In this document: one piece after another, positions 601 to 57,406 of the stretch | How the letters are laid out: every line of letters begins with the position of its first letter | How positions within the stretch are numbered: position 1 is the first letter of the stretch | Assembly (NCBI RefSeq): GCF_058153355.1 | Contig: NZ_CM177019.1 | DNA: 64,000 bases | Direction: 5' to 3' (one strand) | Position numbers and translations under genes: made by a program | The notes under the pieces: model-generated | Database searches by the model: none | Seen by the model: only the letters and a program-made list of their open reading frames with translations | What the model was told of the DNA's origin: nothing

Positions 601-3297
601 TTACTGCCAGCCGTAACGACGGCTATAGAACCCTTTCACCAGCTGGGTTAACGTCATATACCCTGCCAGAATCGCAACCAGCCACGGGAAATAGCTTAAC
701 GGCAGCGCCTGCAGTTGCAGATAACTGGCCAACGGCGAAAACGGCAATGCGATCCCGACTATCATCACAATCACGGTCATGATCATTAACGGCCACGATG
801 CACAGCTCTGAATAAACGGTACACGACGGGTACGGATCATATGCACAATCAGCGTTTGCGACAGTAAGCCCACCACAAACCAGCCCGACTGGAACAGCGT
901 TTGCGTTTCCGGCGTGTTGGCATGGAATACCCACCACATCAGGCAAAACGTCAGAATATCGAAGATCGAACTGATCGGTCCGAAGAAGATCATAAAGCGC
1001 CCCAAATCCGCCGGATTCCAACGCTGCGGCTTTTGAATTTGCTCGTCGTCGACGTTATCAAACGGGATCGCCACCTGTGACACATCGTACAGCAGGTTCT
1101 GGATCAGTAAGTGTAAAGGCAGCATCGGCAGGAAGGGCAAGAAAGCACTCGCCACCAGCACGCTGAACACATTACCGAAGTTAGAACTCGCCGTCATTTT
1201 TATGTATTTCAGCATGTTGGCGAAAGTCCGGCGTCCTTCAATAACCCCCTCCTCCAGCACCATCAGGCTTTTTTCCAGCAGGATGATATCAGCCGCTTCA
1301 CGGGCAATATCTACCGCACCGTCCACAGAAATGCCGATATCCGCAGCGCGTAAGGCGGGCGCATCATTAATACCATCGCCCATAAAGCCAACCACATGCC
1401 CTTCGCGCTTTAGCAAGGTCACGATGCGTTCTTTATGCATCGGCGTCAGGCGAGCAAACAGCGTGGTGCGCTGTGCAAGATTTGCCAGTTCGTCGTCAGA
1501 TAGCGTTTCAATATCACTACCAATGACCACCTCTCCCGCGTCCAGTCCCACTTCATGGCACACTTTCGCCGCCACTAACTCGCTGTCGCCAGTAAGGATT
1601 TTCACGGTAATGCCACTCGCTTTTAATGCCTTCAGTGCCGGAGCTGTTGTCTCTTTCGGCGGATCAAGGAAAGCAATATATCCTTCGAGGATCAGGTCGG
1701 ATTCATCCGCCCGCTGGTAATCCCCTTCACGTGCTGGCAGGTATTTCGTCGCCACCGCAACCACGCGCAGCCCCTGACGATTCAGCGTATCAGTAACGCG
1801 CTTAATCTTACGCAGTATGATGTCATCAAGCGGCACAATCTCACCATTGTGACGCACCTGCGAACACACATTGAGGATTTCCTGCAATGCGCCTTTGCAA
1901 ACCAGTTGATGATGTTCGGTATTCTCTGCCACTACCACCGACATCCGGCGACGCTCGAAATCAAACGGAATCTCATCAATTTTTTGCCAACGACTGGCCA
2001 GCGAGCGCGCTGACTCTTCATCCGTACCTTCGAGCACCGCTGTATCAAGCAGGTTTTTAAGTCCGGTCTGATAATGACTGTTCAACCACGCGCTATGCAG
2101 CACGCGTTCGCTGGTTTTACCGGAGATATCGGTATGATTCTCCAGCACAATTTTATCCTGCGTCAGGGTGCCGGTTTTATCAGTGCACAGAATATCCATA
2201 GCGCCAAAGTTCTGAATGGCATCCAGATGTTTGACGATCACTTTCTGTTTCGACAGCTTTACGGCACCACGCGCCAGCGTCGAAGTGACAATCATCGGCA
2301 ACATTTCTGGCGTTAAGCCTACCGCGACCGAAAGTGCGAACAGTGCCGCTTCCCACCAGTCACCTTTGGTGTAACCGTTGATCAGCAACACCACCGGAGC
2401 CATCACCAGCATAAAGCGAATCAGCAGCATACTGACGCGGCTAATCCCTTGCTGAAAGGCATTCGGCTCGCTTTCCTGCTCACTAACACGCCCCGCCAGT
2501 TGACCAAACCAGGTGTTGGCTCCTGTAGCAATCACCATTGCTTGTGCCGTGCCGCTCACCACGGTGGTGCCCATAAAACACAGGGTGTCGCACTCCAGCG
2601 GATTGCTGTGCTCCGGCTGGCGAGTGGTAGCAGCTTTTTCCACGGGCAGAGACTCACCGGTTAACGACGCCTGAGCAACAAACAGATCCCGCGCCTGCAA
2701 GATACGTAAATCTGCCGGGATCATATCCCCCGCCGCCAGTTTTATAATATCGCCGGGCACTAGTTGGTCTATCGGAATTTCCAGCCAGCCATTTTCACCT
2801 TTATCGTTAATTACGCGCAGTACCGTCGCGGTATTACTGACCATCGCTTTCAGGGCATCTGCCGCTTTGGTGGAACGAGCTTCCTGAATAAAGTTCAGCA
2901 ACGTAGAAATAGCGACCATTAGCGCGATAACACCTGCGGCAAATAAATCTTCCGTGGCGTAAGAAATAGCACCGAGAATGGTGAGCAAAATATTAAAGGG
3001 GTTGCGATAGCAGACCCATAAATGCACCCACCACGGCGACGGTTGTTGCGCGGGTAATTTATTTTCACCATGTTGTTCGCGGGCAGATTCCACTTCCGCC
3101 TGATTTAACCCTTCCGGATGGGTATTGAACGTTTTCCATAATTCCTGTTCTGGCATCACCGCCATTTTCAGGCAATGCGCACTTAAGGACGGCGGGACCG
3201 CCGTATTCACTGTCTGCTGCGCGCCAGGCAATGGATCGCGATGAACCAGACGGGAAGGTAAATGGCGAATGAGCCGGGTAAAAATTTCTTTAAACAT
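601..3297 (-). CDS. mgtA: Mg2+-importing P-type ATPase MgtA
   Basis: 898-aa ORF with the P-type ATPase phosphorylation motif DKTGTLT, the TGES motif and a GDGxNDxP hinge; length and sequence match MgtA. Confidence 0.97.
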   Translation of the reverse strand: MFKEIFTRLIRHLPSRLVHRDPLPGAQQTVNTAVPPSLSAHCLKMAVMPEQELWKTFNTHPEGLNQAEVESAREQHGENKLPAQQPSPWWVHLWVCYRNPFNILLTILGAISYATEDLFAAGVIALMVAISTLLNFIQEARSTKAADALKAMVSNTATVLRVINDKGENGWLEIPIDQLVPGDIIKLAAGDMIPADLRILQARDLFVAQASLTGESLPVEKAATTRQPEHSNPLECDTLCFMGTTVVSGTAQAMVIATGANTWFGQLAGRVSEQESEPNAFQQGISRVSMLLIRFMLVMAPVVLLINGYTKGDWWEAALFALSVAVGLTPEMLPMIVTSTLARGAVKLSKQKVIVKHLDAIQNFGAMDILCTDKTGTLTQDKIVLENHTDISGKTSERVLHSAWLNSHYQTGLKNLLDTAVLEGTDEESARSLASRWQKIDEIPFDFERRRMSVVVAENTEHHQLVCKGALQEILNVCSQVRHNGEIVPLDDIILRKIKRVTDTLNRQGLRVVAVATKYLPAREGDYQRADESDLILEGYIAFLDPPKETTAPALKALKASGITVKILTGDSELVAAKVCHEVGLDAGEVVIGSDIETLSDDELANLAQRTTLFARLTPMHKERIVTLLKREGHVVGFMGDGINDAPALRAADIGISVDGAVDIAREAADIILLEKSLMVLEEGVIEGRRTFANMLKYIKMTASSNFGNVFSVLVASAFLPFLPMLPLHLLIQNLLYDVSQVAIPFDNVDDEQIQKPQRWNPADLGRFMIFFGPISSIFDILTFCLMWWVFHANTPETQTLFQSGWFVVGLLSQTLIVHMIRTRRVPFIQSCASWPLMIMTVIVMIVGIALPFSPLASYLQLQALPLSYFPWLVAILAGYMTLTQLVKGFYSRRYGWQ

Positions 3298-3560
3298 AAG
3301 GAGTCCCTCCGCACTGTCTGAAACAGTGCAGAAATGTCTTCAGGCGTGGCGAAGCCTTACCTGAAGGTAATAAAGCTGAGCTGGGACGTTAAAACGTCAC
3401 GGCCTTACGCATCCGGTAACGCCGTGAAAAGACGGACTTACCGGAAAAGTTTTAATCTCCGTCGAGGGAGAGGCGTGGGATCAGGTTCCATATAACCTCC
3501 GGTAAGTGAAAAAAGCGCCGCAAATAATAAGGAGAATCCAATAATATTCGTGGCATTTAT
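3298..3560 (-). promoter_or_regulatory. mgtA 5' leader (Mg2+/proline-responsive attenuator region containing mgtL)
   Basis: Long untranslated region between the PhoP-box promoter and the mgtA start codon that contains the proline-rich leader ORF mgtL; the upstream boundary is approximate. Confidence 0.65.
3438..3491 (-). CDS. mgtL: mgtA leader peptide MgtL (17 aa, [17 protein letters not shown])
   Basis: Reverse complement of 3438..3491 is atggaacctgatcccacgcctctccctcgacggagattaaaacttttccggtaa. The ORF track merges it into a spurious 68-aa ORF (3438..3644). Confidence 0.85.
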
Positions 3561-3584
3561 GGCGATATAATACCTACTGGCAAC

Positions 3585-3601
3585 TAAACCAACGATAAAC
3601 C
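3585..3601 (-). promoter_or_regulatory. PhoP box (direct repeat GGTTTA-N5-GGTTTA) of the mgtA promoter
   Basis: The minus strand reads GGTTTATCGTTGGTTTA, matching the (T/G)GTTTA-N5-(T/G)GTTTA PhoP consensus, followed by a TATTAT -10-like hexamer. Confidence 0.6.
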
Positions 3602-3673
3602 AGACTTTACCCATTGCTGAATGCACGGGTAAAGTTAGGCTCAAATAATGAAACGCAATTACGGGACAACAGG

Positions 3674-4621
3674 ATGCAAAATCGGCTGACCATCAAAGAC
3701 ATCGCGCGCTTAAGCGGCGTGGGGAAATCTACGGTTTCCCGAGTGCTGAATAACGAAAGCGGCGTGAGTCAGCGCACGCGCGAGCGCGTGGAAGCAGTGA
3801 TGAATCAGCATGGATTTTCCCCTTCCCGCTCTGCGCGCGCTATGCGTGGGCAAAGCGATAAAGTGGTCGCCATCATTGTTACCCGTCTGGATTCGTTGTC
3901 AGAAAATCTCGCCGTCCAAACCATGCTGCCAGCGTTCTATGAACAAGGTTACGACCCGATCATGATGGAAAGTCAGTTTTCTCCGCAATTAGTTGCCGAA
4001 CATTTGGGGGTGCTGAAACGGCGTAATATCGACGGCGTAGTGCTGTTCGGTTTTACCGGCATAACCGAAGACATGTTAGCCCACTGGCAGTCATCGCTGG
4101 TTCTGCTGGCGCGTGACGCAAAAGGCTTTGCTTCGGTCTGTTATGACGACGAAGGGGCAATCAAAATCCTGATGCAACGGCTGTATGACCAGGGGCATCG
4201 TAATATCAGTTATCTCGGCGTACCGCACAGTGACGTGACGACCGGTAAGCGACGTCACGAAGCCTACCTGGCGTTCTGCAAAGCGCATAAACTGCATCCC
4301 GTTGCCGCTCTGCCAGGCCTTGCGATGAAGCAAGGCTATGAGAACGTAGCAAAAGTGATTACGCCTGAAACTACCGCGTTACTGTGCGCAACCGACACGC
4401 TGGCACTTGGCGCAAGTAAATACCTGCAAGAGCAACGCATCGACACCTTGCAACTGGCGAGCGTCGGTAATACGCCGTTAATGAAATTCCTCCATCCGGA
4501 GATCGTCACCGTTGACCCAGGTTACGCCGAAGCTGGACGCCAGGCGGCCAGCCAGTTAATTGCGCAGGTAACCGGGCGCAGCGAACCGCAACAAATCATC
4601 ATCCCTGCCACCCTATCCTGA
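3674..4621 (+). CDS. treR: Trehalose operon repressor TreR (LacI family)
   Basis: N-terminal helix-turn-helix (TIKDIARLSGVGKSTVSRVLNN) and LacI-type periplasmic-binding fold; start placed at ATG 3674 (315 aa) rather than the ORF-track start 3614. Confidence 0.93.
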   Translation: MQNRLTIKDIARLSGVGKSTVSRVLNNESGVSQRTRERVEAVMNQHGFSPSRSARAMRGQSDKVVAIIVTRLDSLSENLAVQTMLPAFYEQGYDPIMMESQFSPQLVAEHLGVLKRRNIDGVVLFGFTGITEDMLAHWQSSLVLLARDAKGFASVCYDDEGAIKILMQRLYDQGHRNISYLGVPHSDVTTGKRRHEAYLAFCKAHKLHPVAALPGLAMKQGYENVAKVITPETTALLCATDTLALGASKYLQEQRIDTLQLASVGNTPLMKFLHPEIVTVDPGYAEAGRQAASQLIAQVTGRSEPQQIIIPATLS

Positions 4622-14173: not shown

Positions 14174-14278
14174 TGCCGGATGCGGTGCACCTGTAGGCCT
14201 GATAAGACGCATCAAGCGTCGCATCAGGCACTATGCTCAAATGCCGGATGCGGCGTGAACGCCTTATCCGGCCTACAC
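14174..14278. repeat. REP/BIME cluster between yjgA and mpl
   Basis: tgccggatgcggtgcacctgtaggcctgataagacgcatcaagcgtcgcatcaggca...atgccggatgcggcgtgaacgccttatccggcctaca. Confidence 0.7.
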
Positions 14279-20960: not shown

Positions 20961-20993
20961 AGTTTCCCCCGTTGTAAAGCGTGCGCCAGATAA

Positions 20994-21058
20994 GACACAA
21001 CAGCGTCGCATCAGGCATCTCGCACAACCGCCGGATGCGGCATAAACGCCTTATCCGG
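20994..21058. repeat. REP element in the ytfQ-ytfR intercistronic region
   Basis: cgtcgcatcaggcatctcgcacaaccgccggatgcggcataaacgccttatccggcggcgtaca. Confidence 0.6.
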
Positions 21059-21092
21059 CGGCGTACAAGTCGGCATCAGGTATTGATGTCCC

Positions 21093-30110: not shown

Positions 30111-30286
30111 GTTTTGCATTTATCAGTCGTCTGAATTTTAACCCTCTGGCGACTTTACAGTACCTTACGCTATACTAGCCACTGAAAATGCCGGTTCACT
30201 TTCTTCGAATCGGCTTTCAATGTGTATTTCACACAAATTAATCAACTTCCCCTTCCGAGGATCTGGCCTGAAAGGTCGGATAAGAT

Positions 30287-34756: not shown

Positions 34757-34945
34757 TTCTCCACCTCGTCTCTGTGAGCGGTGTTAACTTGTTGTTTTAC
34801 TTATACCCTATCGTTAAAGAATGCGCCAACTGTGATAGTGTCATCATTTTCAAAGCGTTAAATTGTGGCATTCTTCACTGTTCTAAAAGTAAGAGGTTTA
34901 TTCTCCCTTTTCTTTCGAATTCCCGATGATAAAAGGATGTCCCTG

Positions 34946-56683: not shown

Positions 56684-57097
<414 letters not shown>

Positions 57098-57406
57098 TTA
57101 TTCAGCCTCCTGTCTGGGTCAGCCGAATCCCGGGGAGGCAAGGAACGTGTTAAAGGTCGGCTGAAAAATGACGCGTTATAGTACTGACATACCCCGCTAA
57201 ACTCAAGGCCAGCCGACAAATAAATCTCATCTTTCACCAAATCGTACTAACACGCTGATTTGAAGTTCATCACACCTCATCATGGTGTTTTTTTGAACAA
57301 CTGCATCAGAAATGGTCACCATCCACTTCTTTATCATTGATTAAAATTAAATCAGAAGATCACCACAAGAGGAGAGCACACAAAGTCAGCCGTCGAGGAG
57401 GTATCT

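Follow-up and report, generated by a model that had tools for sequence, protein, structure and literature searches.

The PhoP box, mgtL leader peptide and alternative RNA stems of the mgtA regulatory region in an Escherichia coli genome

The window (the whole 64,000-nt stretch of DNA that was analysed) contains the divergent genes mgtA and treR, and the analysis centred on the mgtA regulatory interval on the minus strand (3298..3601), which has as its limits the base that precedes the mgtA ATG (3297) and the PhoP box's first base. The two genes are as follows:
601..3297, minus strand: mgtA, Mg2+-importing P-type ATPase of 898 aa, assigned by the ORF, TIGR01524 and the RefSeq annotation of near-identical DNA
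3674..4621, plus strand: treR, divergent from mgtA (TIGR02405, 588 bits)

MgtA was assigned to the TIGR01524 equivalog (magnesium-translocating P-type ATPase) with 1603 bits against a cut-off of 611. On the mgtA strand, the sequence upstream of mgtA reads TCTGGTTTATCGTTGGTTTAGTTGCCAGTAGGTATTATATCGCC and, further downstream, CTTACCGGAGGTTATATGGAACCTGATCCCACGCCTCTCCCTCGACGGAGATTAAAACTTTTCCGGTAAG. Of 5426 complete E. coli genomes, 5425 contain a 471-nt stretch around the interval (3250..3720), and the RefSeq labels under this stretch, taken from 99.8%-identical DNA, are 'mgtA regulatory leader peptide MgtL', mgtA and treR. One of the 5426 genomes is without the mgtL/mgtA leader region; three E. 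coli matches to this region lie on plasmid-labelled records, and two copies occur in at least one genome.

The promoter and the transcribed leader comprise the following features:
3585..3601, minus strand: PhoP box, direct repeat GGTTTA-TCGTT-GGTTTA (GGTTTATCGTTGGTTTA), the same in K-12
3567..3572, minus strand: -10 hexamer TATTAT, without a -35 consensus, read from the sequence; TAT(N)AT is kept in the promoter alignment
3298..3561, minus strand: mgtA 5' leader, about 264 nt, its putative start placed by the -10 hexamer and the Salmonella leader length

A sequence-only reading of this DNA had placed a GGTTTA-N5-GGTTTA PhoP box upstream of the leader peptide, and the repeat was found to be perfect and to lie exactly there, at 3601..3585 on the minus strand. 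The pattern has this single match in the whole 64-kb window, and dinucleotide-preserving shuffles of the window gave a mean of 0.01 matches, with any match in 1 of 100 shuffles. The box is directly oriented towards the -10 hexamer at a spacing of 12 nt (3584..3573). Among PhoP-activated promoters, 'architecture I', which includes mgtA, is defined by a single direct box with 12 nt between it and the -10 hexamer downstream, an overlap with the -35 position and class II activation (PMC3335776), and the mgtA promoter here fits it with its perfect direct repeat, its 12-nt spacing and the lack of a -35 consensus. The PhoP-box consensus and the mgtA box have been described (PMC3335776, PMC5775216); binding of phosphorylated PhoP to the mgtA promoter was demonstrated in Shigella flexneri by gel shift (EMSA) and DNase footprint (PMC5775216), and binding and activation are also known from Salmonella (PMC3335776). 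A sigma-70 consensus scan over 3200..3750 found no promoter, which is expected because the activator site replaces the -35 in a PhoP-dependent promoter; activator-dependent promoters are without a -35, and this null result was not counted against the promoter. From the position of the -10 hexamer and the 264-nt length of the Salmonella mgtA leader (PMC3335776), we infer a transcription start for mgtA at about 3561-3560.

Within the leader lies the gene for the leader peptide:
3438..3491, minus strand: mgtL, 17 codons plus stop, with a translation the same as that of K-12 b4702 and RefSeq WP_001387276.1

The gene begins with an ATG at 3491 and ends with a TAA at 3440..3438, and it has what is expected of a MgtL leader peptide, namely a length of about 17 codons, an acidic and proline-rich N-terminus, proline at codons 3, 5, 7 and 9 (3485-3483, 3479-3477, 3473-3471 and 3467-3465) and a Shine-Dalgarno sequence, GGAGG at 3500..3496, 4 nt before the ATG. 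In K-12 MG1655, mgtL (b4702) occupies the same position, and its translation and effect on read-through were established there by toeprinting and reporter fusions (PMC11282234); by analogy, mgtL here would be translated and would control read-through in the same way.

Coding sequence and RNA structure overlap in this part of the leader, for which the following elements were delimited (the percentages are of alignment cells paired):
3391..3506, minus strand: Magnesium-II (Rfam RF01056), made up of stem A, which holds two inner hairpins, then a linker, then stem-loop B; 123.9 bits
3437..3506, minus strand: stem A, 11 pairs (arms 3506..3496 and 3447..3437), which encloses mgtL; 97.3% paired
3399..3425, minus strand: stem-loop B (arms 3425..3416 and 3408..3399); 98.6% paired
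3413..3444, minus strand: alternative stem C (3444..3437 with 3420..3413), which excludes both A and B; 91.3% paired

The match to RF01056 scored three times as high as the gathering threshold of 40 (E = 1.8e-26), covered model positions 1-115 of 115 and was not truncated. It stops 94 nt short of the mgtA ATG, in the mgtA 5' UTR. A search of Rfam at a permissive E-value over 3100..3800 on both strands returned RF01056 alone, with no second or antisense RNA family. RNA structure prediction, which had been named as a check on the leader, gave a fold of -93.7 kcal/mol for the whole leader (z = -5.5 against shuffles), next to the full-length RF01056 match. The E. coli mgtA transcription start and the published numbering of the stems follow secondary sources.

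The stems were tested on a 45-species alignment of the segment covered by the Rfam model. For stems A and B together, 96.2% of cells were paired and 6 pairs had compensatory changes; none of 500 shuffles reached the observed values, and slid controls paired in 35-48% of cells. Most of the covariation is held by stem B, in which 5 of 10 pairs were compensatory and in which a G.G mismatch (3420/3404) is also flagged in the Rfam alignment. The 3' arm of stem A shares bases with the final codons of mgtL and with its stop codon. The 8-pair core of stem C is almost invariant, and for this reason stem C itself shows little covariation; its 91.3% pairing compares with 13-57% for slid controls. Alignment columns 1, 70 and 87 and the stem-B partner 107 form the corner shared by stems A, C and B, and these four columns, which read C-G-C-G in most species, change together to U-A-U-A in several Klebsiella. 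This linked change is the strongest support for the mutual exclusion of the stems.

The computed energies in this sequence were -19.9 kcal/mol for stem A with its inner hairpins, -12.5 kcal/mol for B and -16.0 kcal/mol for C. When core nucleotides 1-33 were masked, as for a ribosome at the early proline codons, the B-type and C-type folds were isoenergetic at -26.0 kcal/mol, and when core nucleotides 53-80 were masked, as for a ribosome at the stop codon, B alone remained. These modelled energies are compatible with the published model of control by mgtL translation (PMC11552253, PMC11282234, PMC12360218).

The 3' part of the leader carries two further hairpins and the ribosome-binding site of mgtA:
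3338..3366, minus strand: conserved hairpin (CUUCAGG...CCUGAAG), from the RNAalifold consensus of 38 species, with compensatory changes; also in the MFE fold
3311..3329, minus strand: conserved 8-pair hairpin that immediately precedes the mgtA ribosome-binding site, most of its pairs compensatory; in the MFE fold
3305..3310, minus strand: mgtA Shine-Dalgarno sequence GGAGGG, read from the sequence

In the 38-species alignment, compensatory changes were found in 10 of the 17 pairs of the two hairpins, and the motif G(A/G)GGGAC at the ribosome-binding site was kept in 33 species. The hairpin 3329..3311 abuts the Shine-Dalgarno sequence (3310..3305). Upstream of both hairpins lies a conserved GUCCC (3387..3383) whose complement, GGGAC (3307..3303), stands at the ribosome-binding site, and the two are paired in the MFE fold; as modelled, this helix could enclose both 3' hairpins and occlude the mgtA ribosome-binding site. 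Some species have wobble-compatible changes in it, and it is otherwise invariant in most, so that it gives no covariation signal.

Conservation beyond E. coli was assessed by a degenerate-pattern scan of one genome per species, which returned 51 loci, 49 of them from Enterobacteriaceae or MAGs with the same leader; the other two (Marinicaulis and Rhodospirillaceae) were chance matches to the pattern and were excluded. All 49 loci encode a peptide of 14-17 aa that starts M[DE]P[DE]P[TA]P..PR. In 28 of these 49 other species, a perfect (T/G)GTTTA-N5-(T/G)GTTTA repeat stood upstream of the mgtL ATG at a distance of 100-118 nt; most of the remaining species have a PhoP box with one or two mismatches, and in Kosakonia and Phytobacter the box lies about 80 nt upstream of mgtL. 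A leader that could not be aligned with those of other enterobacteria would have spoken against the sequence-only reading; the leader aligned with those of the 49 other species, and its helices covary.

K-12 MG1655 (mgtL b4702, mgtA b4242) has the same gene order, with treR divergent, then mgtL, then mgtA. In a three-way alignment, the PhoP box, the -10 hexamer, the mgtL coding sequence and the arms of stem A, stem-loop B and stem C were identical to those of K-12, so that comparison with the annotated mgtL/mgtA leader, which had also been suggested as a check, came out in favour of the assignment. The differences from K-12 in the leader are minor, and none of them touches the PhoP box, the -10 hexamer, mgtL or any of stems A, B and C; the one at 3328 falls within the hairpin that precedes the mgtA ribosome-binding site. 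Towards treR, the intergenic region is more diverged from K-12 and includes a 2-nt indel. Just 10 E. coli genomes have an identity of at least 99% over the 471 nt, and by this measure of sequence the window is from a less common E. coli lineage.

Another of these differences is the U at 3436, located 2 nt beyond the stop codon of mgtL; 7 of 5424 complete E. coli genomes carry it, EC42405, the closest genome in the alignment, does not, and S. enterica arizonae also has U at this position. It is unpaired in the A+B, B and C folds and shifts the energies by at most 0.2 kcal/mol, and we rejected it as a switch-altering variant on these two grounds and treated it as neutral. The A at 3382, a second lineage variant in the leader and one that EC42405 shares, lies in an otherwise highly conserved GUCCCUG motif.

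The Salmonella enterica mgtA leader is alike in its PhoP box 12 nt from the -10 hexamer, its length of about 264 nt, the position of mgtL inside stem A, the alternative stems B and C and the two downstream hairpins. Its MgtL (MDPEPTPLPRW-R[IV]FLFR) differs from the peptide here. A further difference is at 3420 (leader nucleotide 142, core position 87), where Escherichia (E. coli, E. albertii, E. whittamii and others) has a G that is mismatched (G.G) in stem B, with 3404, and in stem C, with 3437, whereas other genera have a C or U that pairs in each of the helices and varies in step with its partners; Salmonella has C, and its stems B and C are fully paired.

A related arrangement is found in the corA leader with corL in E. 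coli and Salmonella, which likewise has an upstream ORF inside stem A, mutually exclusive A+B and C(+D) folds and attenuation linked to Mg2+; it differs in gene and sequence, corL starts with UUG and has a single proline, and corA is without a PhoP-dependent promoter (PMC11552253).

The assignment of the interval as the expected regulatory leader of mgtA, already made from the letters, is shared by the downstream TIGR01524 equivalog, the full-length RF01056 match and the RefSeq and K-12 annotations, and we hold with high confidence that the region is the E. coli mgtA regulatory region, with control of the Mg2+ importer at two levels; no finding speaks against this identification. This is a textbook case, in which a two-component system at the promoter is combined with a translation-coupled RNA switch in the leader; every part of the control region is already known, the region is ordinary, and the analysis leaves the textbook picture of mgtA control unchanged.

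At the first level, low external Mg2+ would be sensed by PhoQ, and phosphorylated PhoP would bind the repeat at 3601..3585, which would stand in for the -35 at 12 nt upstream of the -10 hexamer, and activate transcription. At the second level, elongation into mgtA would be set by mutually exclusive pairings of the leader RNA that are coupled to translation of mgtL. The segment CCGGUAAG (3444..3437), which overlaps the end and stop codon of mgtL, could pair back with CUUACCGG in stem A or forward with GUUACCGG in stem C, and formation of stem C would exclude stem-loop B. With ample Mg2+ (and proline), ribosomes would complete mgtL and cover 3444..3437, stem-loop B would form, and transcription would stop before mgtA. 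With low cytoplasmic Mg2+, ribosomes would stall or drop off at Glu-Pro-Asp-Pro early in mgtL, 3444..3437 would be free to form stem C, stem-loop B would be blocked, and RNA polymerase would continue into mgtA. Such read-through at low Mg2+ or low proline, by way of the EPDP and proline stretch, has been modelled before (PMC11552253, PMC11282234, PMC12360218), and the response of mgtA to cytoplasmic Mg2+ is known for K-12 and Salmonella (PMC11552253, PMC11282234). The present analysis itself showed that the parts are present, where they lie and that they are conserved, that the helices covary and that the alternative folds have nearly equal energies; PhoP binding, the response to Mg2+ and proline and the destabilisation of ribosomes come from the K-12 and Salmonella literature. 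Since the functional parts are identical, we infer that the strain here would behave like K-12.

It is debated whether Mg2+ acts on the RNA itself or is sensed by way of mgtL translation (PMC11552253). The leader could be chiefly a true riboswitch, in which Mg2+ binds the RNA and stabilises the A+B fold and translation of mgtL is secondary. Rfam files the RF01056 element as a magnesium riboswitch aptamer, the helices of the leader covary, structural probing has found two Mg2+-dependent folds (PMC11552253), and in Salmonella Mg2+-dependent folding alone was enough to modulate Rho termination in vitro (PMC11552253). The latest studies, however, place sensing in the elongation of mgtL, through its proline and acidic codons, bL31 and EttA (PMC11552253, PMC11282234), and the peptide M[DE]P[DE]P[TA]P..PR is kept in 49 species although RNA structure alone would have no need of it. 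We consider a mainly RNA-based sensor unlikely and keep sensing through mgtL translation as the preferred reading; the two mechanisms are not mutually exclusive.

A second alternative concerns the way in which the leader shuts off mgtA. Rho dependence has been shown for the Salmonella mgtA leader and is disputed for E. coli (PMC12360218, PMC5499598). A scan for intrinsic terminators over 3200..3750 found none; termination in the mgtA leader is not driven by a hairpin and U-tract, and the null result is to be read in that light. In E. coli the leader might lower mgtA expression independently of Rho, by RNA decay or by occlusion of the ribosome-binding site, instead of by Rho termination of the Salmonella type. 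The Rho termination score of E. coli mgtA was 1.0 by ChIP-qPCR (PMC5499598), a value repeated in two later papers, which note that E. coli may not share the Rho dependence of Salmonella (PMC11552253, PMC12360218); the conserved hairpin that abuts the Shine-Dalgarno sequence, the complementarity of GUCCC (3387..3383) to GGGAC (3307..3303) and the Escherichia G.G mismatch in both stems B and C point in the same direction. On the other side, Term-seq work places mgtA among the Rho-regulated 5' UTRs of E. coli, and other E. coli studies (including PMC11282234) treat the terminator of the mgtA leader as Rho-dependent. Stretches suited to Rho loading, rich in C and poor in G, span leader nucleotides 71-110 and 171-200, with 30-nt windows of 13 C and 5 G (nucleotides 71-100) and of 10 C and 3 G (nucleotides 171-200), and the GUCCC/GGGAC helix, invariant in most species, gives no covariation support. 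A shut-off independent of Rho is thus a doubtful reading, about as much so as the chiefly RNA-based sensor, and stopping of transcription before mgtA is retained. That G3420, by weakening both helices, underlies the difference in shut-off between E. coli (Rho score 1.0) and Salmonella (Rho-dependent) is conceivable from the sequence comparison and would be quite improbable.

The mechanical ORF list presents the leader peptide in another form:
3438..3644, minus strand: its 68-aa entry, which is no gene; TTG start at 3644, upstream of the promoter

The last 17 codons of this ORF (3644..3438) are mgtL, exactly as the sequence-only reading had it when it placed a proline-rich, 17-codon mgtL at the 3' end of the entry on the minus strand. 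It had also called the longer ORF spurious, and rightly so, since the extension is unconserved across species and the TTG at 3644 lies upstream of both PhoP box and -10 hexamer, which puts the start outside the mgtA transcript. That the ORF is a real protein with MgtL as its C-terminus has in its favour an unbroken reading frame with a TTG start, but it is almost certainly wrong, and the ORF was rejected as a gene: ahead of the mgtL ATG the frame is open over 5-119 codons across species (16 in E. albertii), an upstream in-frame start is absent in 17 of 50 sequences, RefSeq and K-12 annotate just the 17-codon mgtL, and a strong GGAGG stands in front of the internal ATG. With its start upstream of the promoter and its extension variable, the 68-aa ORF is an artefact that comes from taking the 'first start after a stop'. 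The consequence is for annotation only: naive ORF lists hide a real 17-codon regulatory gene within a meaningless 68-codon frame, and leader peptides therefore need to be read in the context of promoter position, ribosome-binding site, RNA structure and conservation.

Several lineages depart from the common spacing of the leader. The E. coli E69 species cluster and E. whittamii are without about 10-12 nt (the ATTCTCCTTATT region) between the promoter and stem A, and in both the PhoP box is 100 nt, not 110 nt, from the mgtL ATG. In Kosakonia and relatives (L003, L010, L013, L024, L025, L034, L038, L045 and L053) the part of the 5' leader ahead of stem A is much shorter, and an insertion of about 45 nt stands between the conserved block described below, with a GGTTTA half-site, and another PhoP-like box, CGTATACGTTTGGTTTA, which lies about 80 nt upstream of mgtL; the Kosakonia-type arrangement is also that of L010, a soil MAG labelled 'Proteobacteria bacterium'. 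The three Phytobacter loci share the short 5' leader and have a perfect box, GGTTTACGTTCGGTTTA, about 80 nt upstream, without the Kosakonia-type insertion.

Directly upstream of the PhoP box is a conserved 15-nt block (3604..3618; AGACTTTACCCATTG on the plus strand, CAATGGGTAAAGTCT on the mgtA strand), which has at most 2 mismatches in about 40 species and variable flanks. Its distance to the treR ATG is roughly constant, at about 56-71 nt; in C. koseri an insertion parts it from the PhoP box and the block stays with treR, and loci without an adjacent treR (L008, L009 and L020) lack it. Because of the constant distance to treR and the absence without an adjacent treR, we tentatively assign the block to the treR promoter, of which it is probably a part, back-to-back with the PhoP box. 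TTTACC-N18-TAAAGT in this region is a weak -35/-10 candidate for treR. A third PhoP half-site and a mar/sox/rob box were considered for the block by eye, and it fits neither consensus.

Elsewhere in the window, the following matches scored above the Rfam gathering score:
14196..14273 and 20984..21060, minus strand: naRNA4, two copies
30168..30225, plus strand: STnc450
34823..34945, minus strand: ES239 sRNA
57077..57161, minus strand: RpsF leader
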